A stretch of DNA of 64,000 nucleotides from a virus, in the IMG/VR virus record IMGVR_UViG_3300008265_000001; one strand, given 5' to 3'. The first letter of the stretch is position 1, and each line of letters begins with the position of its first letter. Positions 1 to 56,042 of the stretch are shown here, piece after piece. The notes beneath the pieces are model-generated. The model saw only the letters and a list, made by a program, of their open reading frames with translations, did no database searches and was not told the origin of the DNA. Made by a program: the position numbers and the translations under genes.

Positions 1-876
1 TTCCAAAAAACTAGTAATTTCTTCCTCAGTAGCAAAACGCCACCCTAACCATTCAGGTTCACAACTTTTAAATCTTCTTTGAGCGGTAATGAGAGCTATT
101 TTTTGAAATCGGGCAGCTTGAGAAATTGATATATAATATTTATCGTCTATTATTACAGGTTTGCTATTAGGAGAAGCTGCCCTCATGTTAGTTTTAGCTT
201 CTTCTGTAACAATTTTCCCTTTGGCTGACGCACTCATTTTTGCTCTGGTTTCAGGTGAGAATACCCTTCCTTTACCCGCAGCGCTTATTTTGTCTCTAGT
301 TTCTTTACTACAATTTTTACTATTAATACTAATTTTAGCTTTAGCCTCTTCAGTATGACGATAACCAAGACCATTAGTATTACCTTTACAAGAAATACTT
401 CTTTTGGCTCTGGTTTCAGGTGATTGTACCTTACCTTTCAGTGAGTTACTTATTTTTTCACGTGTTTGAATATCACGTTCTTTCCCTTTTTTAGCAGCCG
501 CAATCTTAGCTTTGGTTTCTTGTGTAATAACCTTACCTTTGTTAAAAGCACTAATTTTTGCCTTATGCTCTTCTGTAAGAGCTAAGCCTTTACATCCCCT
601 TCCACCAATTTTCATATTGTAGATATCTTCACGGCTTATAAACTCTTTATTGACCATCTCTTCTTCAGCTTCATAAGCATCATCGGCGCAGCTAAATTCA
701 GCTAACGTAGCTCTAGTAAAATTTTCTCTGCCATGTTTATTGATTGCCGCACGTAGACCGTCACCACTACCTAAATATTTCCTAGATTTTGCAGTATTGG
801 CAACTTTATGTACCCCAACATAAATCTTGCCATTCAACAAATTCGTAGTTTTATACAAAATCCAAGTGTCAGCCAT
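1..876 (-). CDS. GIY-YIG homing endonuclease with NUMOD3-like repeats, partial (C-terminus runs off window start)
   Basis: Absent from the ORF track because no stop falls in the window. I checked the frame is open over 1..876. From the ATG (rc of 874..876) it reads MADTWILYKTTNLLNGKIYVGVHKVANTAKSRKYLGSGDGLRAAINKHGRENF. Paralog of 5448..6224. Confidence 0.85.
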   Translation of the reverse strand, partial: MADTWILYKTTNLLNGKIYVGVHKVANTAKSRKYLGSGDGLRAAINKHGRENFTRATLAEFSCADDAYEAEEEMVNKEFISREDIYNMKIGGRGCKGLALTEEHKAKISAFNKGKVITQETKAKIAAAKKGKERDIQTREKISNSLKGKVQSPETRAKRSISCKGNTNGLGYRHTEEAKAKISINSKNCSKETRDKISAAGKGRVFSPETRAKMSASAKGKIVTEEAKTNMRAASPNSKPVIIDDKYYISISQAARFQKIALITAQRRFKSCEPEWLGWRFATEEEITSFLE

Positions 877-893
877 TGCAAATATCCCATATC

Positions 894-918
894 CATGTAT
901 AATAAATACAGTATAACA
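894..918. promoter_or_regulatory. conserved core of divergent intergenic region, copy 1 (TATAAT at 898..903 on +)
   Basis: CATGTATAATAAATACAGTATAACA is the exact reverse complement of 5405..5429. It sits between divergent starts at 876 (-) and 933 (+). Confidence 0.35.
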
Positions 919-932
919 CACGTGAGTACAAA

Positions 933-1085
933 ATGCGTCCTGATAAAAGCAAAAGATTAAATGCGAAATTGTCCGTAAAAAGACATGAAAAGTTGATGAA
1001 ATATGCCGAGTCGCAAGATAAGGATATGACATCAGCTATAGAGTGCTGGATTGATAGTCTTCCAGAAGTCCAAGTGTTAAACTAA
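933..1085 (+). CDS. small ribbon-helix-helix-like protein (50 aa)
   Basis: Below the ORF-track size cutoff. Reads MRPDKSKRLNAKLSVKRHEKLMKYAESQDKDMTSAIECWIDSLPEVQVLN, with a basic strand-helix-helix layout. Paralog at 5235..5387. Confidence 0.55.
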   Translation: MRPDKSKRLNAKLSVKRHEKLMKYAESQDKDMTSAIECWIDSLPEVQVLN

Positions 1086-1110
1086 AGTAAACACTTCCAT
1101 TACCAACCCA

Positions 1111-1575
1111 ATGACATACCAAACTTCAGACTTCTTTTTTAAAAGTTTAGCTACTCAAGGTCAAGCCATCATAAACACTTTGAAAAACAAAGGTCAACAA
1201 GCGTTAGTGCCTAAAACAAAGCAAAGCGCTATAGATGCGTTCAATCAAAAGAATGTAGCAGCTATTGGCAATCAAAAACTGAATAACTCACCATTCTCAC
1301 TAACTCGCGACCAACGCTCTGCAAATGTGAAGTATGGAACTGCTCCAGATGCCCGTGTAGAGGCTTTGGCATCACAGTCTGTAGGCAGAGGATTATCTAA
1401 GCAACAAGCTCCTAGACAGCCCCAAAGAAAGCTTGCGCCTGATGAATTCTATGATGCGGCGGGAGTGATACGTCGAAAAATGAGTGTTGGTAATTGGAAG
1501 AGTCAACAACAATTCCAGACGGGGCAATATGGAGGATTTTCAGCGCCTAATTTCGTACATTTTGCAAATTTCTAA
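1111..1575 (+). CDS. hypothetical protein, Q/N/K-rich
   Basis: Track ORF that follows 933..1085 and is followed 3 nt later by 1578..3512. Confidence 0.6.
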   Translation: MTYQTSDFFFKSLATQGQAIINTLKNKGQQALVPKTKQSAIDAFNQKNVAAIGNQKLNNSPFSLTRDQRSANVKYGTAPDARVEALASQSVGRGLSKQQAPRQPQRKLAPDEFYDAAGVIRRKMSVGNWKSQQQFQTGQYGGFSAPNFVHFANF

Positions 1576-1577
1576 AA

Positions 1578-3512
1578 ATGGGGAAATTTGTCAAACGTGA
1601 GAACAATGGGCGCGTATTCCTAAAAGACTCGCAAACAGATGAGTGGTTACTTATATCGAACCAATCGACCGTAGACACAAAAGTACAAACGAGAACGAAA
1701 CAAAGAACCAGTAAGGAATCCCTCTTTAAACTTGTTACAGTAAAAAGATTAGAAGGTATTTCTTTAGAAACTATCACTTCTCGACTAAGAACTTCTCAAG
1801 CCAACTTAGAAAGAGCTGCTGTATTAGCCCAATTTCCTATTCCAGCGCCTGTTAAGTTCCCAGAAACAGATGAGGATGCTATAAACTATTTCTCTGTTTT
1901 TATTGATGAAGATTTGAGGGGTAGTAATGAGCCAATCTTCACTTTTTTCTCTTCTAGCTACCAAACACAAATCCGCGCCTATGTTAGCGCCAATTCTGCC
2001 AATCGTGGTGGTTGGAGTGTTCACTTAGCTTATGTCAAATCGGTTAAAGACAAGCAAGATGGGCTTAAAGAAATCGACTGGACTTTGGTTAGCATCGATA
2101 ACGCAGATATAGCCCCTTATGGTGGTTCTACGCCTATAACAGAGCGTCAGACATACCAACTAGACCTAGATGCCACTGGATTGCCTCGGTGCTTCAAGTC
2201 AAACTTCTCACTCGATAATTTGACTTATCTTGGTGGAGGTATATGGTCATGCCTAGTTATCGACCCAGAAGACCGCATACCTGTTTACGGTGTAGCTTCC
2301 ACCAGCGATACCCGCTATAAACGTATTTCTAATGGTGTAGGAGGGAACTCGGTCACTGTGACATCATATAGTGTCACTCCAACATACTCTTTTACGTGGT
2401 GTCGTGGTCAGTCAGTACTTAGAAAGCGTACTCGTAGTGCAGCAGTTGAGTTTGACCAAGAAGCATTTGATGACAGCGCTGTGCTTGTGCAGAAAAGGAA
2501 ATCATTCTACTCTCTTGACCTAACTTTGCGTCCTGAAATGTCGAGCAATCAATTGGTGCAAAAGACAATCACTGAAGTATGCAACTCAGAGGCTACTTAT
2601 GTCGGTAACACCAATTATTTTCTGTTCTCTCCAAGGCAGTCGCCCGATTATGGGACAGATTTAGCTCGATTCAGCTTACAAAAATATCAGCAGCAGTCTA
2701 ACGTCATTCGTCCTAATGCTTGGGGTGTTTTGGCAGCATCTAAGGAAGGCTCATTGCTTTTGCACCTCGATATGGGCATGGCAGAAGGAAAAATCGAGCA
2801 TCCTTACGAAATCAAGAGTACGGTTGGCAAAAGAGGTGTTAGTTACGAGTGGCAATACAAAAGTTGGTGGGCATACGGGAAAATTCAGGATTATTACCCA
2901 TTAACTAAAAATCAGTATACCTATTTTGTCAGTCGAACATTTGGCACTGAGGTTCCTTCGACTTTATTTGTTGATGGTAGTGCGCCTTATGGAGCTTTGA
3001 TAAAAACTGCGCCAAATCAAGTACAAACTACTTGGGATGCACCGCCTTTGCCTGAGACTGGCTATTTTCCGATTCGTCGAGGAGAATTTAGCTTCGTGTT
3101 GCGGTATTCGATGCCACCATTCTTTTCGCACGAAGGTTGTTACTACTATCAAGTCAATCCAGAGCGTATAGGCTCAAGCTCGTCATCTGGTGACAGGGTT
3201 TACGATAATAGTGTTGCACCAGCACAGCCTAGCTTCAGTCTAGCGCCATCTTTCAGTTCACAAGATGATACTAACCCAAATTCCAAGCAAAACGGCTATA
3301 TAGCTACATACACGCAAATTTTAGGGGCTTTAGATGGTGCAAGTGTTAGTAGCTTCAATATTGGATATAGACCGATTGCTGCAAGTGATACTGAGTCGAT
3401 TTTGGTACTTTCACCTAATCCAGAGCAGAAGTTGAGATTGAGCCAAGAGCCATCGTTATTTCCTAATGCTTTTATAGGAAGTGTAAATGAGAATATTGTA
3501 ATTAATGATTAA
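1578..3512 (+). CDS. hypothetical large protein (644 aa), possibly virion-associated
   Basis: Long uninterrupted ORF with no motif I recognise. Confidence 0.7.
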   Translation: MGKFVKRENNGRVFLKDSQTDEWLLISNQSTVDTKVQTRTKQRTSKESLFKLVTVKRLEGISLETITSRLRTSQANLERAAVLAQFPIPAPVKFPETDEDAINYFSVFIDEDLRGSNEPIFTFFSSSYQTQIRAYVSANSANRGGWSVHLAYVKSVKDKQDGLKEIDWTLVSIDNADIAPYGGSTPITERQTYQLDLDATGLPRCFKSNFSLDNLTYLGGGIWSCLVIDPEDRIPVYGVASTSDTRYKRISNGVGGNSVTVTSYSVTPTYSFTWCRGQSVLRKRTRSAAVEFDQEAFDDSAVLVQKRKSFYSLDLTLRPEMSSNQLVQKTITEVCNSEATYVGNTNYFLFSPRQSPDYGTDLARFSLQKYQQQSNVIRPNAWGVLAASKEGSLLLHLDMGMAEGKIEHPYEIKSTVGKRGVSYEWQYKSWWAYGKIQDYYPLTKNQYTYFVSRTFGTEVPSTLFVDGSAPYGALIKTAPNQVQTTWDAPPLPETGYFPIRRGEFSFVLRYSMPPFFSHEGCYYYQVNPERIGSSSSSGDRVYDNSVAPAQPSFSLAPSFSSQDDTNPNSKQNGYIATYTQILGALDGASVSSFNIGYRPIAASDTESILVLSPNPEQKLRLSQEPSLFPNAFIGSVNENIVIND

Positions 3513-3698
3513 GCGGTTGAGGAATTACGATATCCTGACTCCTACTTGGAAGGTAGGCATATTTCCTCTATACTACAACCGCATGAACACCAATATTAGC
3601 TTCCGTCTCCACCTGTGGTAGCCTAGCCTTTATGCGGCTAGACGCAGCGTTGAAACTGCCACTTTCACTAAGCAATCCGAGACACTCGGAAGGGTGTA

Positions 3699-3778
3699 AG
3701 CCAGTCGCGGGAATCGAACAAACCGCTATCTGTTGGTTATGAGCCAACCGTGATTATTATCCATGTCACTCCACTGGC
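3699..3778 (-). tRNA. tRNA-like element with CAU anticodon (Met/Ile2-type), non-canonical T stem
   Basis: The minus strand reads GCCAGTG GA GTGA CATGGATAATAA TCAC G GTTGG CTCATAA CCAAC AGATA GCGG(TTT)G TTCGATT CCCGC GACTGGC T. The anticodon arm and TTCGATT T-loop are perfect. The acceptor has 6 bp plus a G-G mismatch, and there is a 3-nt bulge in the T stem. Confidence 0.4.
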
Positions 3779-3827
3779 ATTTATTAATATAACACAATAT
3801 TATTGACTTACATATCTATCTTAAGGA

Positions 3828-4226
3828 CTATTCTGCAAATTCTCCATATTTCAAGTATTTTTCCAAAGCTTTGTGTGAGGCAATATATTCTTTACGCAAT
3901 CGATGAAACTGTTTGTCAGCAATCTCGTTGAAATGACTATAACAAAGGAAGCAGTAGCTAAATCCCTCGTTGTCGATACGGTCGTGAAGTGCTTGCAAAT
4001 CTTCGTCACTAAGGTTGATACTAGTAGATTCCACAAGCTCTACAGTATTAACATTTAGTCTTGCAGGAGTAGTTTCACCGTTAACCCAATATACTTCAAA
4101 ATGACCACCAGCTAAATTAGCTTCATCGTAGTCAGATACTGTACCAACTGTACCTGACGGAATTAAAGCTTCACCGTAGACTATTTGTGCAATAGCTACA
4201 ACTTTGTCGCCTCTGTTTATTGACAT
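3828..4226 (-). CDS. hypothetical protein
   Basis: Track ORF 3828..4244. I prefer the ATG at 4226 (MSINRGDKVV), which is preceded by GGAG. Confidence 0.65.
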   Translation of the reverse strand: MSINRGDKVVAIAQIVYGEALIPSGTVGTVSDYDEANLAGGHFEVYWVNGETTPARLNVNTVELVESTSINLSDEDLQALHDRIDNEGFSYCFLCYSHFNEIADKQFHRLRKEYIASHKALEKYLKYGEFAE

Positions 4227-4284
4227 ATTATCTCCAAGGAACAAATTTCATAACAAGCAAAATTGCCAAAATCCAAGTAATCAC

Positions 4285-4479
4285 TTATTTTTCCTCGTCA
4301 GGTGCAACTTCGTAAACTTCAGAAATCAGTAATCTATGCTGACCGAACAAAGACGTGCCAACATTTATTTCTATGTCCGTAGTGTGAAATTCACCTTGGT
4401 CAAGTCCAATAGTTGCTTCTGGGTATTCTGCTTCAAAAGATTGAAGATATTTGATAAATTCTGGAAGTGTGTATTTCAT
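4285..4479 (-). CDS. hypothetical protein (64 aa)
   Basis: Track ORF in line with the neighbouring minus-strand genes. Confidence 0.55.
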   Translation of the reverse strand: MKYTLPEFIKYLQSFEAEYPEATIGLDQGEFHTTDIEINVGTSLFGQHRLLISEVYEVAPDEEK

Positions 4480-4488
4480 AATTACTAG

Positions 4489-5235
4489 TTAACCATAAAA
4501 GCATGAAACATTATATGTAACCAGAGAGGTATCTTGCTGTTCTGGTCGAAAACTGCGGTCTTCGCTGTAAGTTTGTAAATATTGCACATTGCTGCCAAAA
4601 ATGCCGTAAATATCAGCCGTGAAAATTGATTGTCGTTCTGGGAGTTGTTGCCAAGAGGTATTGCTGCTACTTGGGTAGGTTTTGGTAGGTTCTAGGCATC
4701 TGTAGTAGCGATTGGTGTATTTTACTAAACTTCCTTTTGCGAATGGCTCAAAGACGCTGCTAGGACTTGCTCCAAGGTCTGCGAATTGGTCTGTGGGTTT
4801 TTGGATTGTGTTGGTTATAAACTTGCTGTCAACAATCAGAGAATAACGTGGGTCAAACTTGGGAATGAGAAACTCACGAAAATATACGGTATTCAAGGCA
4901 AGCCCAGAATTACCTAGAATTGGATGAATTTCGCTTTTTCGACCGATTTCGCGCCTGTTGATTTTCTCTTTAAAGATTTGTGGAGTGACGGAGCCTGTAA
5001 GTCGGGTTTCTGTGCCGAGACGATTTATGAGTGAAATCGTTGGGCGGTAAGAGGTGGAGGCATTTATGATGTTGGTAAGGGCATAGAGGGGGAAGTGCTT
5101 GTCAAAACTTCCGTTTAAGCTGAAATGGGCATCATTGTCCTCAGCGATGAATAGCGTAGAGAATGGTTTTCCAACTTGGTTTCGAGGAGCGAGGAATGAG
5201 TGACCAGAGACGACTGGGAAGGTGAAATCGGGCAT
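4489..5235 (-). CDS. hypothetical protein with possible carbohydrate-binding-like C-terminal motif
   Basis: Track ORF. GSLVKYTNRYYRCLEPTKTYPSSSNTSWQQL resembles CBM5/12-type motifs (weak). Its start overlaps the upstream stop (TAATG). Confidence 0.7.
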   Translation of the reverse strand: MPDFTFPVVSGHSFLAPRNQVGKPFSTLFIAEDNDAHFSLNGSFDKHFPLYALTNIINASTSYRPTISLINRLGTETRLTGSVTPQIFKEKINRREIGRKSEIHPILGNSGLALNTVYFREFLIPKFDPRYSLIVDSKFITNTIQKPTDQFADLGASPSSVFEPFAKGSLVKYTNRYYRCLEPTKTYPSSSNTSWQQLPERQSIFTADIYGIFGSNVQYLQTYSEDRSFRPEQQDTSLVTYNVSCFYG

Positions 5236-5387
5236 TATTTTGCTGTTGTGTCAGGTAAAGAGTCAATCCAATCCTCAAAAAGACAGGTCATCTTTTTTTG
5301 GCGGGAGTCAGCATAGTTCTTGAATTTATCCATGCGCTTCTCAGATATAACCGCATTAAATCTTTTGCTTTTATCGATATTGCTCAT
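5235..5387 (-). CDS. small ribbon-helix-helix-like protein (50 aa), paralog of 933..1085
   Basis: Hand-translated as MSNIDKSKRFNAVISEKRMDKFKNYADSRQKKMTCLFEDWIDSLPDTTAK. It shares DKSKR.NA..S.KR..K...YA.S....MT.....WIDSLP with copy 1. Confidence 0.55.
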   Translation of the reverse strand: MSNIDKSKRFNAVISEKRMDKFKNYADSRQKKMTCLFEDWIDSLPDTTAK

Positions 5388-5404
5388 TGTTTATGTTTTT
5401 TATA

Positions 5405-5429
5405 TGTTATACTGTATTTATTATACATG
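5405..5429. promoter_or_regulatory. conserved core of divergent intergenic region, copy 2
   Basis: TGTTATACTGTATTTATTATACATG matches rc of 894..918 at 25/25 nt. It sits between starts at 5387 (-) and 5448 (+). Confidence 0.35.
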
Positions 5430-5447
5430 AAAGGATGGGTATGTGCA

Positions 5448-6224
5448 ATGGCTGAGACTTGGATATTATATCGAACTACGAATTTGTTGAATGGCAAGAT
5501 TTATGTTGGGGTACATAAAGTATCTGATACCAAGCACTCAAGACGTTATTTAGGTAGCGGAACAATTCTAAAGCCAGCTATTGAAAAATACGGCAGGAAA
5601 AATTTTACTAGGACTACATTGGCAGAATTTAATAATTGTAAAGATGCCTATAAAGCTGAAGCAGAAATGGTTAATGAGGAGTTCCTTAAACGCACTGATA
5701 TTTACAATGTAAAACTGGGAGGGGAGGGTAGTGTAGGCTTTAAACCTACCGAGCAGACTAAAATAAAGATGAGTATTGCAAACAGAGGGAGAGTTGCTAA
5801 CGAAGAACAAAAGCTAAATTACAGCAGAGGTCAACTTGGTAATAAAAAATGGTTAGGTAAACACCATACGGAGGAGTCTAAAGCGAAAATCAGTGCTGCT
5901 AACAAGGGACATACACGCACTGTAGGTAAAATTTTAACTCCAGAAAATAAAGCTAAACTAATAGCTTCAAATATAGGTAGGGTTAAATCCAAAGAAGAGA
6001 TTGAAAAACTCAGGGTAGCTAATAGCGGAGCAAATAACTCTGGAAGTATAGCAGTTGTGATAAATGGGGTATATTATCCTACAAAAAAATTTGCAGCCGA
6101 AGGGGAAAAAGTAGTTCCAGCTACTGTATCGGACAGAATTAAAAGTCCTAAGTCGAAATGGGATGGTTGGAGACTGGCTACTGATGAAGAAAAATCTATC
6201 TATGGTTCTAGTACGCTAGAATAG
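5448..6224 (+). CDS. GIY-YIG homing endonuclease with NUMOD3-like repeats
   Basis: Track ORF 5298..6224. The likely start is the ATG at 5448 (MAETWILYRTTNLLNGKIYVGVHKV...YLGSG). It contains repeated K..S.AN.G....E..K units. Confidence 0.9.
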   Translation: MAETWILYRTTNLLNGKIYVGVHKVSDTKHSRRYLGSGTILKPAIEKYGRKNFTRTTLAEFNNCKDAYKAEAEMVNEEFLKRTDIYNVKLGGEGSVGFKPTEQTKIKMSIANRGRVANEEQKLNYSRGQLGNKKWLGKHHTEESKAKISAANKGHTRTVGKILTPENKAKLIASNIGRVKSKEEIEKLRVANSGANNSGSIAVVINGVYYPTKKFAAEGEKVVPATVSDRIKSPKSKWDGWRLATDEEKSIYGSSTLE

Positions 6225-6251
6225 ACTAATACTTTAATATAAAAACTAAAA

Positions 6252-7781
6252 ATGCCTGTCGCAGAAGAAGCCATACAATTAAGCTTATTAGAAGACCTAG
6301 ACGATTCTTTGTTGTTTGCTGGGACTCCTACTCCAATGGCAGCACTTCGCCAAGGGCAATATACGAGCGAGTACCAGAGCCTCACGACAGACGCACTTGC
6401 ATCGATAACTCACCCTAACGAAAACGAGCGCCCTCCACTGAAATTGCTCAGCGAGATGGCAAACCGCGACCCCATAGCTGCCCAGTGTCTAGCTTTCAAG
6501 GCACTACGCGCCCAAAATTCGTTTGGTTCATACGTCCATCCTAAGAAAGAGATAGAAGCTTTTGTAAATAGCAATCTCAAAACTCTCCCTAAAAGTTTTA
6601 AGAAAATTCTGTTTCAATTATTCTCCTCAGTCATCCTACACGGTGTCGCGGTCGCAGAATTTACAAAATCATCGAAGGTGCGAGGATATAGGGGGCAGTG
6701 GCGAATTGCGAATATTAACGTATTAAATCCTGAAAATATCATTAGTTTCGGAAAAACGATAAATAAGGGTGGGCATATAGAATTTATCGAGTACGACAAT
6801 GGAAATGGAAAAATAGTGAAAATTCCATATCAGAAATGTCTGCATATTACGAATAATTCAGGTTCCGCCTTTGACCGCATGGCTGTTTGGGGTATTGGTG
6901 ACGGTCTGAGCGCTCTGAATTATTACAAATTAAAAAAAATTGTGCTCACACATCTAGCTCTCCGCATCAAAAACGACAGCGAAGGTCTACTCTGGGCAAA
7001 AACACCTAACAACGGCACAACCACAATGGTTGATACCCAAGGTAACGTCAAAAAAGATTCCAAGGGCAAGCCACTTCAATTAACAAAACAAGCTGCTCTC
7101 AGTCATCAACTAAAAGACATTCAAAAACGCGGATTCATTGTTACTGACAACGATGTTGAACTCAGCCGCATCCAAATTCAAAACACCAGCGAAAATCACT
7201 TCAAAGCGCTAGAATACATCGACAGAGGCATTCAATCAAGCTTTGCTATACCTTCGGGCATCTTTGACGTTAATAGTGGCTCAGGCACAACAAATCTAGG
7301 TAACAACGGCTTTGGTCAAAACTTCAAGATGACCTTTGACTCGACAATCTTTGCCTTAACAACCACACTCAAACACGAAATTATCCACAAGATGATTCGT
7401 GGCTTATTGCACGATAACTTCCCTTCCAGTTGGTTCAGTGAAGATTGGGGCGAGTTTGTATTCGATGTCGAAGAAGACCAAGCAACAGTTAACGGTCGTC
7501 TTAGCACCATCACCTCTCTCATTGCATCTGGCATTATCCCTGCTGATGACGTTGAGGTACTTGGGCTTATCCGTAAGAATCTCGGATTACCTTCGCTTGA
7601 CGATGAGGAAAAACGCAAAAAAGAAGAAGACGCGCTCAAGGCTGAGGTACAAAAAGAACTTGAGAAACAAAGTCAGGTACTATCCTTACAGGCTCAGATA
7701 AATCAGCTTCAGGCTCCTCCTGCACCGCCAGAAGGACAAGCTGAACAATATCCTCCTCAAGAGGGAGGTCAAGAAGGTTAG
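6252..7781 (+). CDS. putative portal protein
   Basis: 509 aa with a charged coiled-coil C-terminus (EEKRKKEEDALKAEVQKELEKQ), placed among virion genes. The size and layout are portal-like, but I saw no diagnostic motif. Confidence 0.45.
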   Translation: MPVAEEAIQLSLLEDLDDSLLFAGTPTPMAALRQGQYTSEYQSLTTDALASITHPNENERPPLKLLSEMANRDPIAAQCLAFKALRAQNSFGSYVHPKKEIEAFVNSNLKTLPKSFKKILFQLFSSVILHGVAVAEFTKSSKVRGYRGQWRIANINVLNPENIISFGKTINKGGHIEFIEYDNGNGKIVKIPYQKCLHITNNSGSAFDRMAVWGIGDGLSALNYYKLKKIVLTHLALRIKNDSEGLLWAKTPNNGTTTMVDTQGNVKKDSKGKPLQLTKQAALSHQLKDIQKRGFIVTDNDVELSRIQIQNTSENHFKALEYIDRGIQSSFAIPSGIFDVNSGSGTTNLGNNGFGQNFKMTFDSTIFALTTTLKHEIIHKMIRGLLHDNFPSSWFSEDWGEFVFDVEEDQATVNGRLSTITSLIASGIIPADDVEVLGLIRKNLGLPSLDDEEKRKKEEDALKAEVQKELEKQSQVLSLQAQINQLQAPPAPPEGQAEQYPPQEGGQEG

Positions 7782-31813: not shown

Positions 31814-31844
31814 GGTAGAATAAATAAAACCTAAAGGAACAAAC

Positions 31845-36832: not shown

Positions 36833-37341
36833 GAATCGTCTACTAGTGAGTCTAGACATATTTCGTTATTTTTAAGCCACGCTTCAGTTTCAAGCACTTT
36901 AGTATAAAGACCTCGCATTTCGGGGGATTCTCTGTACCACGCATAGTAGTTGTCTTCTGCATTCCTTTTCCACGACATTTCATGGTCAGACTTCGCTGTT
37001 AGTTCTGCATAAATTGATTGGCTAGGTGTGGGTGGTTTTTCTCCAGAATCTTTTGCCACTTTCGCTAGTTTTCTGAAATTTCTAATTTCTTCAGATTCTT
37101 GTAGTGGGGCAAATTTATAAATCCCCATCTTAGATGCCAATTCAGGACTAATTAATCTAGGGGAGAGTCCTGATACAGCGTCATAGTCCCACCTTTCCGT
37201 GTTGATGTATACCCAACCTTCAGCCTCCATCTTAGTGACATATAAGGATGTGACTAGTTGTTTCTGTAGCCTTGCGTTCTCTACAGCTTCATCTAGCAAA
37301 GCTATTTGAGATTGATACCAGTCTAAGTCAATTTTTTCCAT
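36820..37341 (-). CDS. hypothetical protein
   Basis: Track ORF trimmed to the ATG at 37341 (MEKIDLDWYQ). Confidence 0.6.
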   Translation of the reverse strand: MEKIDLDWYQSQIALLDEAVENARLQKQLVTSLYVTKMEAEGWVYINTERWDYDAVSGLSPRLISPELASKMGIYKFAPLQESEEIRNFRKLAKVAKDSGEKPPTPSQSIYAELTAKSDHEMSWKRNAEDNYYAWYRESPEMRGLYTKVLETEAWLKNNEICLDSLVDDSYEP

Positions 37342-37343
37342 GA

Positions 37344-37352
37344 TGTTAAAAT
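37344..37352 (+). promoter_or_regulatory. extended -10-like box TGtTAAAAT, 6 nt before the ATG at 37359
   Basis: Read directly. No SD. Confidence 0.3.
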
Positions 37353-37358
37353 AAATAA

Positions 37359-37868
37359 ATGGCTCATCCAATTACATTCAGTACGCTTACTGAAGTCCTC
37401 AATCTAGATGTCAGCTCAATTCCCCAAGGATTTGCGGTTGTCTGCATTGAATTGAAGTCTTGGCTAATATACGATGCCACAGCTTCAGATGCAACTGTCG
37501 CAGGGCAGATATTCGCGCCTACGGCTGGTGCTGGGCGATGGTTTAGGTCGAACAATACTGCAAACAAACTAGACACGATTACGAGCGTCACAACCACTAC
37601 GTCCACGACTGTAGCTGATTTTACGAGTGTCGAGCAGGTTCGAGTGGTCTTTACACAAAACAGCACCATTAATCTACAGACGGTGCTGAGAAATGGTGCT
37701 GGTAGCTTGTTGTTAGATAGGAATAGTGGGGCTTGGACTATTACGGGATTTGACTCGCGCTTTAGATTTGGGAGTCTTTCTAGTCCTGCTTTTACTAGTA
37801 ATTTCTTGATTGTAAATTTTATATGTATAAATAGTTTGATATATGTTACAGAATATAATTCCTATTAA
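37359..37868 (+). CDS. short protein sharing the N-terminal domain of tail fibre 12950..13984
   Basis: LIYDATASDATVAGQIFAPTAGAGRWFRS parallels FSYGSTSTATADDVSVLLPASGIGRWFKL. Confidence 0.6.
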   Translation: MAHPITFSTLTEVLNLDVSSIPQGFAVVCIELKSWLIYDATASDATVAGQIFAPTAGAGRWFRSNNTANKLDTITSVTTTTSTTVADFTSVEQVRVVFTQNSTINLQTVLRNGAGSLLLDRNSGAWTITGFDSRFRFGSLSSPAFTSNFLIVNFICINSLIYVTEYNSY

Positions 37869-37871
37869 CGC

Positions 37872-38768
37872 CTAATTTATTTTCCATTTAATACTTAATT
37901 TATTTTCCATATCAAGTCTCCATGCCAAAGCATCTGCCCTACTAAAGAATGTGGGTGAGTTGTAATGCTTTTTATTAACGACAATTCTCGCTCTAAACTT
38001 TCCATTCCCGATATCATATACACCTTTACCAGAATTATCTCTTGCATTTAGTTTTTTATTTCTTATTAGTGTTTCTAGTTCTTTAATACTTCCCTCCCCA
38101 AACTTGTACACTTTTTCTGCCTCTAACTGTATAGCCAAAGCTTCTTCTCTTGTGGAATATGTTCCACAGCAAATTGTATTTTTATTAAGGTATATTCTTA
38201 CTTGCCATCTACCATCATCAAGTAATTTAATTCCTTTATTTGTCTGGATATTTTTATTTTTTTCTTTTATCTCCGATAAATATTTATAACTATCTCCCTC
38301 GGAAAATGTGCTAAATTTAGAAATTAAATTCTCTTTTTCTTTCAGTGCTTCTTCTTTTGTACAAAATGAGCCTACTCTTGCGGTTATACCTTTAAACTTA
38401 AGTCTTAACCTCCATTTATCATTTCTTTTATCTATGTGGCAGTTTATGTAGTATGACTCTCTTTCTGAAGGTCTAAAAACACTTTTGCAAATATTGTAGC
38501 AAAAATCCCAATTCTCAATACTGTCCAGATAAGTTTGTTCCAAATCTAGTAGCTTTTCTCTAGTAGATTCTTCAACAACAGTAAAATCAAAAACCTTTTC
38601 TCCGTATTTATTCCAAGCTTTTTGTAAATATTTGTTATCATGTATACCCTTTCTTAAATGTAATTTATGAGAGTTCCACCTAGTCCTTATACAAACTGAG
38701 CTGCCAACATAATACTTATTATTAGCAGTATTAGTAATAAAATAAATTCCTGATGTGTTCTTTTCCAT
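37872..38768 (-). CDS. GIY-YIG homing endonuclease with three AP2-like DNA-binding repeats
   Basis: GIYFITNTANNKYYVGSS...R...H...YL, then DKWRLRLKFKGITARVGSFCTKEEAL, GRWQVRIYLNKNTICCGTYSTREEAL and GKFRARIVVNKKHYNSPTFFSRADAL. Confidence 0.85.
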   Translation of the reverse strand: MEKNTSGIYFITNTANNKYYVGSSVCIRTRWNSHKLHLRKGIHDNKYLQKAWNKYGEKVFDFTVVEESTREKLLDLEQTYLDSIENWDFCYNICKSVFRPSERESYYINCHIDKRNDKWRLRLKFKGITARVGSFCTKEEALKEKENLISKFSTFSEGDSYKYLSEIKEKNKNIQTNKGIKLLDDGRWQVRIYLNKNTICCGTYSTREEALAIQLEAEKVYKFGEGSIKELETLIRNKKLNARDNSGKGVYDIGNGKFRARIVVNKKHYNSPTFFSRADALAWRLDMENKLSIKWKIN

Positions 38769-38775
38769 AATCACT

Positions 38776-38795
38776 ATTATAATTTTTTTTTTTTT
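38776..38795 (-). promoter_or_regulatory. TATAAT 7 nt before the ATG at 38768, preceded by an A13 tract
   Basis: The minus strand reads AAAAAAAAAAAAATTATAATAGTGATTATG. The homopolymer spans 38783..38795. Confidence 0.3.
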
Positions 38796-38880
38796 CTTCG
38801 CTTTTTCAAGTAACTTTGCAATTATTGAGTTTACCTGTATCAACAATCTCATCTATGTGAAATCAGTTACGAGCTACTAG

Positions 38881-40017
38881 TTACTTTTTGCTGTCATATT
38901 CTGGGTTCATGACCTTGACCGACAAATCGTTTGAGTAAAGTGTACGAACTACAATACCTTCAATGACTCGACCAGCCTCTTTCTCTCTTTTAAAAACATC
39001 AGAAGCAAATGAAATAAGTTCATCGTAATTTCTAGGATGTAATTGAAAGAAAAGTCTTGCTGGAGTGTATTGGAGTTTTAGCTCATGACAAATAATTTCG
39101 AGATTGTGAGGTTGTCCATAATGGATTCGAGTTGCAAAACCGCTCGCCAAATCATCAACACCGAAAAGAATTAGTCCTTGCTTCAACTGAGCATGAGGAT
39201 TCAGCTTGTTACCACTTCCTTTCAAACCCTGACCATAGATTTCACCACGAAAAGCGAGTTCGACGTTGTGCTTTTTGCAGTATTCCATACCACGTTCGTA
39301 CAGACCAGAAGACTTAGCCAACTTGACCCAACTATCAGCAGTGTCGTCAGTGATTTTCTTTTCCAGTGAACGAGAACAGATACCAGTGTACCAGTTACCT
39401 TCGACATCCTTCTTGAAATACTCGGTAAAAGAGCTTCCATCAACTTTGATAGTGTATGCAACTTCTGCCCCACTCGCAAGAACCCGATTAATGTGAGATT
39501 TGAGGTTAGCGCAGTTTTCTTCATCTGTGGAGTACAGAAAAGAAGGTAGTGTGCCTCTAGTTAGTCCTGTAGCGCCTTTCTCTGGCTCTTCATACTTAGT
39601 AATGCCCAATGCTGCTGCAAGGTCTTCAGCCGCCAACAATTCGCTTGGAAGCTCATTTGTGTTGAGTAAGATACCGACAGAGTAAATTGGGTCAGAACTG
39701 TTCTCGAAACTGAAATTGAACTTGAGCGCTCGAATGCGATTGTTTTTGCCAAGTCGAGATTTGTTAGGGTCGCCGTTAGGGGCTGTGAAACTTGCAAACA
39801 GAGGTGAGTCGGGCAAACAGTAGTCGGGCTGAATGTAGACTGCCTTGGAACCTACTTGGTAGATGCCCTTTTGCGAGACGACATTATAGCCGCACTCGTC
39901 TCCATTACTGAAGTTGAGGTTGACAACTTGAATGGACGACGCTTCTTCGCCATTTTTGTAGATAGGGATGATGCGGGAGATTGTTACGATTTCGACAGGG
40001 GCAATGGTGTTGGTCAT
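38881..40017 (-). CDS. ATP-dependent RNA ligase, DRB0094/Rnl5-like (N-terminal OB-like plus adenylyltransferase)
   Basis: Motif I is YTIKVDGSS, motif IV-like is IEGIVVR and motif V-like is VKVMNPEY. The N-terminus (KGIYQVGSKAVYIQPDYCLPD) resembles that family. Confidence 0.7.
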   Translation of the reverse strand: MTNTIAPVEIVTISRIIPIYKNGEEASSIQVVNLNFSNGDECGYNVVSQKGIYQVGSKAVYIQPDYCLPDSPLFASFTAPNGDPNKSRLGKNNRIRALKFNFSFENSSDPIYSVGILLNTNELPSELLAAEDLAAALGITKYEEPEKGATGLTRGTLPSFLYSTDEENCANLKSHINRVLASGAEVAYTIKVDGSSFTEYFKKDVEGNWYTGICSRSLEKKITDDTADSWVKLAKSSGLYERGMEYCKKHNVELAFRGEIYGQGLKGSGNKLNPHAQLKQGLILFGVDDLASGFATRIHYGQPHNLEIICHELKLQYTPARLFFQLHPRNYDELISFASDVFKREKEAGRVIEGIVVRTLYSNDLSVKVMNPEYDSKK

Positions 40018-40256
40018 AGTTCTTTCACTAGGTTGATTGTGTCGGGAATTTTGGATTGTTTTTCGTTACGGAGCCATTGATTGATTGCAGTTTCGGCAGC
40101 TTCAACGCTTTCGTAATGAGTTATTACTGTAGAACCATCGTAAGCAATAATATCCCTTTCTGTCCTGTACCAAAAGAAACAGAATCGTTCTTTAATGAAG
40201 TAATAATCTTCAGAGACATTGTGGAAAATCTTGAATCGTGGTGGTAATTTAATCAT
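40014..40256 (-). CDS. hypothetical protein (80 aa)
   Basis: Track ORF trimmed to the ATG at 40256, which overlaps the upstream stop. Confidence 0.5.
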   Translation of the reverse strand: MIKLPPRFKIFHNVSEDYYFIKERFCFFWYRTERDIIAYDGSTVITHYESVEAAETAINQWLRNEKQSKIPDTINLVKEL

Positions 40257-54772: not shown

Positions 54773-55447
54773 TTAACCTTCCTCCAAATAGTTTAAAACA
54801 AACTTCACAAAATCATCAAAAGGCTGCGTAGCGCTGAAATCATTATTATCAAGCCAGTAGTCAGGTATCTCCACCTTGTTATAAAAATCCCACTGTAACA
54901 ACTCACTCTCTGGTGGGCGATGTGTACCGTACCGCATACTCTTGTTAGGTTCTACCCAACCATGAAGAGTCTCTCTTGCCTTCTGAGCCTTAGCAGCAGC
55001 TTCGTTGTGAATGTACACAACTTTACCACCTTGTCGCTTCACCCAATCGAGTTCATTCTGGTAACGTAAATCTGAAATGAGCAAAATACTTGCAGAATTA
55101 CCATACTTCCTATCGAGGGCATTAATAAACACATCTTCGCCAAGATTTTCGCGAAGTAATTGCCCTACTCTTTTCTGCACATCTCTTGAAGACCACTTAG
55201 ACTCGATGCCAGAACGGTTAGCGCCAAATACAAATCGTTTCTCTTCTTTCAAGCTGCGGTCTTGCAATTCCTTACCACTAATGCCAAGAATCGGAGCTAT
55301 GGCTTCATTCAACGAGTCTGCAAAGCGAGTTCTTACAGTAGACATGGTGTAGCGATGCTGATAAATCAATCGGGACTGCAAGCGATTCATGATGAAGTCT
55401 TTACCTCCGTTGATTGAAGATATAGCAGCTATAATTTTTCTAGTCAT
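54773..55447 (-). CDS. T4 gp1-like deoxynucleoside monophosphate kinase
   Basis: AISSINGGKDFI (an SGKD-type P-loop variant) and ISDLRYQNELDW. Confidence 0.65.
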   Translation of the reverse strand: MTRKIIAAISSINGGKDFIMNRLQSRLIYQHRYTMSTVRTRFADSLNEAIAPILGISGKELQDRSLKEEKRFVFGANRSGIESKWSSRDVQKRVGQLLRENLGEDVFINALDRKYGNSASILLISDLRYQNELDWVKRQGGKVVYIHNEAAAKAQKARETLHGWVEPNKSMRYGTHRPPESELLQWDFYNKVEIPDYWLDNNDFSATQPFDDFVKFVLNYLEEG

Positions 55448-56042
55448 TTTGTCTACTCTCTATTATCATTTTTACAAATTTCAAAGCTTCGTCATTAGTG
55501 TGATTATTCTTCATAAGGTTAGCACCTTTACAAACAAATTGAACATTCCCTTGGGCATATTCTTTACTGGAGTCAATCCTATCTAAACTAGCTCCCCATA
55601 AAGGTGTTCTAGGTCGTTTCTTTACCTCTAAAGTAGTTGCTCTAATCTCCATAGGTACACCCGTTAAAGCACATATACCTTTCTGACTGTCCCAGACATC
55701 CTTAAGGTATTGTAAAGTTAAATTTTCGTATTGTCTATGCCCTTTTTTGCGGGAACCATTTAGAAATAATCTAAAAGGGCTGAACTCATCTAAATTTTTC
55801 AATTTTCTTTGTATGTTTATATATCTTTTTTGTTCTGGTGATAGGGCTTTAGACCCTTTTAATCCCCTCAATCTAAGTTCTTCCTTATCGGTTAATTTTT
55901 GGGCAGTACAACTCACGCTACAGAATGTCATTTTAGACTTGTTTCTAGATAGTCTGTATTTCAATTCCGATTCAGTAAGTGAAATTAAAACCCCACAAAA
56001 ATCACAAGGGTAATTTACCCTCTTCTTAAAAGGTCTAGACAT
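55440..56042 (-). CDS. HNH-family endonuclease with N-terminal zinc finger
   Basis: CDFCG...CSVSC, then ASLDRIDSSKEYAQGNVQFVCKGANLMKNNH. Confidence 0.7.
   Translation of the reverse strand: MSRPFKKRVNYPCDFCGVLISLTESELKYRLSRNKSKMTFCSVSCTAQKLTDKEELRLRGLKGSKALSPEQKRYINIQRKLKNLDEFSPFRLFLNGSRKKGHRQYENLTLQYLKDVWDSQKGICALTGVPMEIRATTLEVKKRPRTPLWGASLDRIDSSKEYAQGNVQFVCKGANLMKNNHTNDEALKFVKMIIESRQND

Follow-up and report, generated by a model that had tools for sequence, protein, structure and literature searches.

In bacteriophage T4, displaced host promoters and the down-regulation of homing endonuclease genes (HEGs) are established themes (PMC2988022). Control of these genes relies on promoter choice, on RNA structure or, for I-TevI, on autorepression via the nuclease's own DNA-binding domain. 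For IS605 transposons, a preprint of September 2026 reports, based on ChIP-seq and reporters, that the small ribbon-helix-helix (RHH) protein Arc binds and represses the bidirectional arc/tnpA-tnpB promoter, and lists homing endonucleases among the neighbours of Arc (bioRxiv 10.64898/2026.09.24.754181). A preprint from 2023 describes Arc-like RHH proteins in IStrons, homologues of which also adjoin homing endonucleases (PMC10690162). Here, we examined a stretch of viral DNA of 64,000 nucleotides (nt) (IMG/VR record IMGVR_UViG_3300008265_000001; the whole stretch is referred to as the window), which is ~80% identical at the DNA level to the Pseudanabaena phages PA-SR01 (MT234670) and Pam2 (ON014754). 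Within its first 6,224 nt it encodes, twice and in opposite orientation, a GIY-YIG homing endonuclease that is divergent from the gene for an RHH-type protein of 50 amino acids (aa).

We consider it likely that the two units are independent, paralogous free-standing homing-endonuclease cassettes, each one a mobile unit, in which the RHH protein represses the promoter. Such a cassette would comprise a GIY-YIG/NUMOD3 endonuclease gene, a region of 56-60 nt with opposed -10 elements, and a gene for an RHH protein of 47-50 aa. During mixed infection the endonuclease would cut cassette-free alleles in related phages, and recombinational repair of such a cut would bring in a copy of the entire unit (intronless homing). 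An RHH dimer would bind the shared promoter region and hold down transcription of both the nuclease gene and its own, as IS605 Arc does, and the near-consensus RHH promoter would replace the displaced native promoter and drive the downstream phage genes.

The cassettes resemble the Seg and I-TevI systems of T4 in the combination of a GIY-YIG domain with NUMOD3 and C-terminal DNA-binding modules, and the Seg genes also in their intergenic insertion, in their presence/absence polymorphism among related phages, and in that expression is to be kept low and displaced host promoters replaced (PMC2988022). Unlike the T4 genes, the cassette HEG travels with a separate RHH gene and a two-way promoter, and does so at three sites. 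With IS605 Arc the cassettes share an RHH micro-protein of at most 50 aa, whose gene and that of a mobile-element nuclease point away from each other on either side of a short bidirectional promoter, and the small genes of both are often unannotated; moreover, distant members of the window's RHH family adjoin TnpB. The partner differs, however, being a protein-guided GIY-YIG nuclease in a lytic cyanophage and not TnpA/TnpB in a bacterial insertion sequence, and the comparison with the Arc proteins tested, which are Clostridial, is one of architecture. Another parallel is provided by the C proteins of restriction-modification systems, small DNA-binding regulators that travel with a nuclease gene and set the timing and level of its expression on entry into a new genome. 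Unlike the cassette RHH, these are helix-turn-helix proteins, their genes usually run in the same direction as the nuclease gene, and the systems to which they belong include a protecting methylase.

Cassette A occupies site A, between a large upstream open reading frame (ORF) and a 154-aa gene. Its nuclease gene, HEG-A (1..876, minus strand; at least 292 aa, with matches to NUMOD3 and PHROG 314), extends past the window start and overlaps the 3' end of the large ORF with its own 3' end. A putative divergent promoter region (877..932; promoter scan, conserved -10 boxes) separates it from RHH-A (933..1085, plus strand; 50 aa, type MRPDKSKRLN), a gene supported by AlphaFold (AF2), Foldseek and dN/dS, which ends 25 nt before the start of the phage gene at 1111..1575. 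Cassette B occupies site B, between a 248-aa gene and the portal gene. It consists of RHH-B (5235..5387, minus strand; 50 aa, type MSNIDKSKRFNAV), an ORF with close relatives at site B of three other contigs (L035, L037 and L038; contigs and loci used for comparison are given L numbers), a predicted divergent promoter region (5388..5447; sequence motifs and promoter scan), and HEG-B (5448..6224, plus strand; GIY-YIG and NUMOD3, 258 aa), which lies 27 nt upstream of the portal gene.

The two cassettes are joined by several inverted matches. The repeat finder recovers a repeat of 195 nt at 76% identity (693-887 versus 5437-5631), a perfect match of 25/25 nt between the two genes of each unit (894-918 versus 5405-5429), and one of 23/24 nt inside both small ORFs (942-965 versus 5352-5375), and pairwise alignment reveals 48 nt of perfect identity (803-850 versus 5474-5521). 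A 22-nt core occurs exactly twice in the 64 kb, where 0.01 occurrences are expected by chance, and no further copy of either HEG or either RHH gene is found in the window. The encoded nucleases are 41-43% identical and the RHH proteins 56% over 43 aa. Thus the two-gene unit that an earlier, sequence-only reading described as duplicated in inverse orientation, with 25-nt and 48-nt perfect matches and small ORFs about half identical, is present with all its features where that reading placed them.

Occupancy of sites A and B was surveyed in the window, PA-SR01, Pam2, metagenomic contigs and eleven IMG/VR contigs. Both sites are filled in the window, L004, L029, L031/32, L033 and L037 (six genomes, seven contigs; L031 and L032 are the same sequence). 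PA-SR01 has the left unit only, at the same place (HEG 54863-55642; 48-aa ORF 55699-55845), and five distinct sequences (L028, L030, L034, L035/36 and L038) have cassette B only. Pam2 has neither, and carries at a third site, C, the Seg-like nuclease Pam2_85 and a 48-aa ORF (80698-80844) in the same cassette architecture; in the window, site C is a vacant intergenic gap of 31 nt (31814..31844). Compared with PA-SR01 and Pam2, cassette B is a clean insertion of ~990 nt into a gap of 42 nt between the 248-aa and portal genes, and in the comparison with relatives cassette A lies between the large ORF and the gene that follows it. Wherever the flanks are readable, an RHH gene with at least 60% identity to those of the window has a GIY-YIG/NUMOD3 gene as its divergent neighbour, and vacant alleles at A, B and C lack both genes. 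Because HEG and RHH gene are present or absent together, they and the promoter region between them form one unit of gain and loss, and the earlier suggestion that the small ORF accompanies the nuclease is always borne out in close relatives.

Several loci in the survey appear to represent stages of cassette decay. On a short metagenome contig (L027, 465-983), the 5' part of an HEG is frameshifted, co-oriented with the RHH gene and fused to it at about codon 8; either the contig is a chimera of the assembly or the cassette has been rearranged and is decaying. On a 146-kb viral contig (L028, 14432-14515), whose site A has no HEG, the homologue of the 154-aa gene has half an RHH gene (the 3' half) fused behind it, as either a remnant or a recombination product. 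The vacant site A of Pam2 (L002, ~3607-3621) includes 15 nt, CTATTTCTTTTTCTG, of which 14 agree with the 3' end of the HEG that PA-SR01 carries at site A; this suggests from sequence that the Pam2 allele arose through deletion of an earlier cassette. The starts of the genes downstream of vacant A and vacant B share the 10-nt sequence GACTTTACTT (L002, ~3657 and ~7774), and occupied alleles differ at this position (5235 in the window), for example with GATTTCACCTT. The difference is a possible target or immunity polymorphism, and may be due to chance.

Both nucleases match NUMOD3, at 66 bits for HEG-A and 42 bits for HEG-B (Pfam cut-off 20.4), as well as the PHROG 314 family 'homing endonuclease' (E 6e-51 for HEG-A and 2e-47 for HEG-B) and the PADLOC 'HEase' models; their Pfam GIY-YIG/SegE matches fall under the gathering cut-off. 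The orthologue of HEG-A in PA-SR01 is annotated as 'putative group I intron endonuclease'. When nine cassette nucleases are aligned, the GIY-YIG residues Y8, Y19, E71 and N87 are invariant (9/9), and the arginine of the motif (R32) is retained in seven, including both of those in the window. The profile of these nine aligns in register, if weakly, with the catalytic domain of I-TevI (1MK0; E 0.07) and, through its C-terminal part, with the I-TevI DNA-binding domain (1I3J; E 0.038); a sequence search of the PDB with a single HEG gave no match. The number of NUMOD3 repeats differs among the cassette nucleases. By these sequence features both belong to the free-standing GIY-YIG homing endonucleases (Seg/I-TevI-like).

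The small proteins were placed through their family. A word-based search found only ten close relatives of the window RHH, and a HMMER scan with the profile of those ten retrieved 208 cluster representatives at E < 1e-3. Pfam models matched by a family sample of 53 members are DUF6364 (44/53), 56B_RHH (16/53; best 7.5e-6), RHH_10 (13/53), CopG_antitoxin (10/53) and ParG (6/53), with HicB, RHH_1, Arc, ParD and TacA also among them; a profile search of the PDB gave ParG (E 0.26) and ParD (E 0.52). With the 53-sequence alignment, AF2 predicts, as a monomer, an extended segment at residues 8-14, a helix at 15-27, a turn and a helix at 32-42 (pLDDT 91). Nine of the ten best Foldseek matches in the PDB are RHH chains, superposing with an rmsd of 0.7-1.4 Å over 33-36 residues. 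The RHH proteins matched are ParD, PutA, AmrZ and Arc, with ParD at rank 1 (3.8 Å over 42 columns). Residues 8-14 (R-L-N-A-K-L-S) alternate between polar and hydrophobic, the pattern of a DNA-reading strand in RHH proteins, and the sequence of P22 Arc aligns with the window RHH weakly but in register. Codon comparisons gave dN/dS of 0.03-0.14 (0.03 for RHH-A versus its orthologues), so that the ORF is a real gene; it is under strong purifying selection. We accept an RHH fold for the small protein on the strength of the family-level Pfam matches and the predicted structure, as the sequence-only reading had proposed. The homologous RHH gene at site C of Pam2 (80698-80844; L003, 3501-3647) is 69% identical to the window RHH and is unannotated in GenBank.

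Between the two genes of cassette A, a -35 element (TTGCAA, 876-881) and a -10 element (TATAAT, 898-903) point toward the RHH gene, and an extended -10 element, TGTTATACT, points toward the HEG on the minus strand (910-918); the conserved core spans 894-918. Cassette B has TGTTATACT on the plus strand (5405-5413), toward its HEG, and TATAAT on the minus strand (5420-5425) together with TGCACA (5442-5447). By promoter scan the RHH-ward promoter matches the consensus at 10 of 12 positions in both window copies. The same design recurs in all cassettes (~20): the spacer between HEG and RHH gene measures 56-60 nt with opposed -10 boxes, CATTG is kept at the HEG start, TTGnnn stands 16-17 nt upstream of TATAAT or TATACT toward the RHH gene, and TGTTATA(C/A/G)T, an extended -10 toward the HEG, lies on the other strand 6-9 nt beyond the RHH-ward -10. 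Since the two -10 boxes face each other, the polymerase sites must overlap, and the 5' ends of the two transcripts would overlap by a few bases. A compact divergent region with both -10 boxes conserved fits the earlier proposal that the unit carries its own bidirectional promoter. At site B, the RHH stop codon and the start codon of the 248-aa gene overlap (TAATG), and nothing is left of the native promoter in this gap; transcription of the 248-aa gene now probably relies on the cassette B promoter, an instance of the promoter displacement treated for T4 (PMC2988022). Vacant sites were also compared with the cassette core, given that in I-TevI the operator is similar to the homing site, and a resemblance is unsupported (shuffle p ~0.02-1, mostly >0.05): by-eye matches such as TATAATAGGCATAACA in vacant site B gain no support from local alignment against shuffles.

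The copies in the window are no closer to each other than to cassettes of other phages. Their HEG N-terminal domains are 70% identical, within the 59-73% seen between any distinct cassettes (a range that excludes the identical N-terminal domains of L004_B and L005_B). The C-terminal domains are 40% identical between the window pair and fall into site-pure groups, A versus B never exceeding 52%. Of the two origins that the sequence-only reading offered, recent duplication or gene conversion, the former is therefore rejected, and by sequence the two cassettes are old paralogues; conversion is retained for a local tract of identity. Identity between the copies is concentrated and not uniform, as had been noted: it reaches 96% in the bin 801-850 compared with 40-74% in other well-aligned bins, and drops almost to zero at 401-500, a part in which the copies have different numbers of NUMOD3 repeats. 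The orthologue of cassette A in L006 shares 95.5% identity with it, with 19 mismatches within 803-965 (163 nt) versus 9 in the adjoining 712 nt on the left. Cassette A agrees with cassette B at 15 of these 19 positions, compared with 6 of 26 in the remainder (Fisher p = 3e-4). The clustering of mismatches and the likeness to cassette B point to a short, patchy tract of ectopic gene conversion between the inverted copies, which covers the promoter and the 5' ends of the HEG and RHH genes on either side of it (803..965; partner 5352-5521) and to which, on this sequence pattern, the 48-nt perfect match belongs. The shared patch is slightly more similar to the B copy of L035, a hint that conversion ran from B to A. 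The 25-nt core was considered as a further conversion product and rejected: relatives in both lineages have it natively (at site A, L006; at site B, L035, L037 and L038), and it is thus conserved, only the flanking patches having been converted.

The body of the RHH protein, in contrast to the C-terminal domains of the HEGs, crosses between sites. The RHH protein at site B of L028 is 96% identical to RHH-A of the window, the window's site-A type is found at site B in L004, L005 and L028-L032, and its site-B type at site A in L004, L014, L015 and L029; only the last few residues of each RHH gene, beside the flanks, follow the site. The idea that two-cassette genomes always combine different RHH types holds for the window and for L004 (with the types swapped) and was dropped for L037, whose pair differs by eye at about 7 of 38 core residues.

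The sequence-only reading had raised a further role for the inverted pair, namely that the two cassettes could, in the manner of terminal repeats, invert or mobilise the 4-kb segment that they enclose. The enclosed native genes (1111..5235, outside the cassettes) encode proteins of 154 aa (+) and 644 aa (+), a tRNA-Gly (3512-3582, -), and proteins of 138 aa, 64 aa and 248 aa (all -). The 'tRNA-like element' noted there is an ordinary tRNA-Gly(TCC). In favour of inversion are the inverted repeats, which are perfectly identical over 48 and 25 nt, a conversion tract showing that the copies do recombine, and RHH genes that point inward at each end, such that a crossover in the promoters would leave every gene a promoter and need not be lethal. 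The order, orientation and inward layout of the enclosed genes are, however, identical in Pam2, which has no cassette at A or B, and in PA-SR01, which has only A; the inward-pointing layout is therefore native, and because the native genes at sites A and B face each other, the cassettes are inverted as well. All contigs (11 viral) have the order large ORF, cassette A where present, 154-aa gene, 644-aa gene, and on to the 248-aa gene, cassette B where present, and portal gene. No inverted junction (for example, portal-HEG-RHH-154-aa gene) is found in the six two-cassette genomes or in single-cassette contigs, although assemblies could miss an inversion that is rare within a population. Pfam and PHROG scans of 1-7781 reveal no recombinase, invertase or transposase domain, and the cassettes are gained and lost independently of each other. 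We therefore regard an inverting or mobilising pair as very improbable. Ectopic recombination between the copies does occur, to judge by the sequences, as a short conversion tract and with no sign of moving the 4 kb. Within the segment, the 154-aa gene (1111..1575, +) is variable: L033, L035/36 and L037 lack it, and in several others its identity is just 45-62%. The tRNA position is also variable: Pam2 has four tRNAs there (Arg, Lys, Asn, Gly), and L005 is without the whole stretch from the tRNA to the 64-aa gene.

What the RHH protein does is best judged from the wider family. A scan of metagenome contigs returned only distant relatives. The more distant family members (37-53% identity) have no HEG neighbour and are divergent from TnpB/OrfB_IS605 or Rha-type genes. 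TnpB is the neighbour in L012 and in seven of the nine metagenome loci L018-L026, on cyanobacterial-type contigs, and Phage_pRha/AntA genes in L011, L013 and L016; the RHH leader of L016 resembles the cassette leader. These HEG-free relatives, together with the L016 leader, indicate that the module of RHH gene and promoter predates its association with HEGs, and could be taken to mean that the RHH protein is a native phage regulator beside which an HEG landed by chance. That explanation is largely refuted by the presence/absence data, given that vacant alleles at all three sites lack both genes, that the pair occurs at three unrelated sites, and that the pairing is kept in all close homologues, and we give it very little credence. 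An antitoxin-like or immunity partner, inhibiting the nuclease protein or shielding phage DNA without any control of transcription, is also unlikely, if somewhat less so: many RHH proteins are type II antitoxins, the family has weak matches to CopG_antitoxin, ParD, HicB and TacA, ParD is the top Foldseek match, and linkage to a potentially toxic nuclease is tight. Against this, the cassette RHH proteins are a bare core of 47-50 aa without a C-terminal toxin-binding extension, the genes are divergent and form no antitoxin-toxin operon, none of the PADLOC defence models matches the RHH, and RHH proteins of this family are also encoded beside TnpB and Rha-type genes, for which Arc partners were shown to act on promoters. 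By analogy with these, the RHH protein most likely represses the cassette's divergent promoter, limiting both the nuclease and itself.

A number of observations count against the cassette reading with RHH repression. The RHH proteins of the window themselves have no Pfam or PHROG match, their Foldseek E-values are not significant (for a query of 50 aa), and AF2 with a shallow alignment of 12 near-identical sequences returned one long helix, an output we take to be misleading. Lysine replaces the conserved GIY-YIG arginine in two of the nine cassette nucleases, and some cassettes are decaying; at site A of L037, for example, the HEG is truncated. No operator could be defined in the cassette promoter regions, and covariation of RHH beta-strand residues with the core was rejected, as identical cores occur with both RHH types. 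A tight shut-off of the promoter by the RHH protein would starve the downstream phage genes as well. Finally, we infer the cleavage site, homing, DNA binding and transcript starts alike.

A third free-standing GIY-YIG endonuclease, of another family, is encoded elsewhere in the window (37872..38852, minus strand; 326 aa, Pfam GIY-YIG 40.5 bits). It adjoins an RNA ligase gene and has no RHH partner. Matches to Pam2 and PA-SR01 span 64% and 56% of 37000-40200, respectively, consistent with its being missing there.

The kind of nuclease, the fold of its partner and the probable regulatory logic are already known. New are the co-mobility at three phage sites, the exchange of RHH gene and promoter between sites, and the probable replacement of promoters for host genes. 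The arrangement had been taken to be undescribed; two preprints do mention Arc-like RHH proteins beside homing endonucleases in passing, but neither analyses such a cassette. In the literature we found no description of a co-mobile HEG-RHH cassette, and the papers on PA-SR01 and the Pam phages only list the nuclease.

A genome that carries a homing endonuclease has to be protected from it. A separate repressor gene with a two-way promoter would be a further solution beside promoter choice, RNA structure and autorepression, and would tie phage homing endonucleases to the Arc-TnpB regulatory logic of IS605 transposons. With this finding the more exciting notion, an invertible segment bounded by nucleases, falls away, and the unannotated RHH copy of Pam2 illustrates that genes of 50 aa are being missed. 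More tentatively, Arc-like RHH proteins may be a portable 'governor' across nuclease-driven elements, RNA-guided TnpB in IS605 and protein-guided GIY-YIG HEGs in phages being examples, with the cassette serving as a movable two-way promoter for its neighbours and with the RHH-promoter half swapped while the DNA-binding domain stays bound to its site. We hold this broader view to be possible rather than probable; if true, it would put structural genes (the 248-aa gene and possibly the portal gene) under the control of the cassette. The polymorphism at three sites, with all states represented in Pseudanabaena phages both cultured (PA-SR01, Pam2) and uncultured, makes these phages a natural setting in which to study homing, regulation and the exchange of modules.

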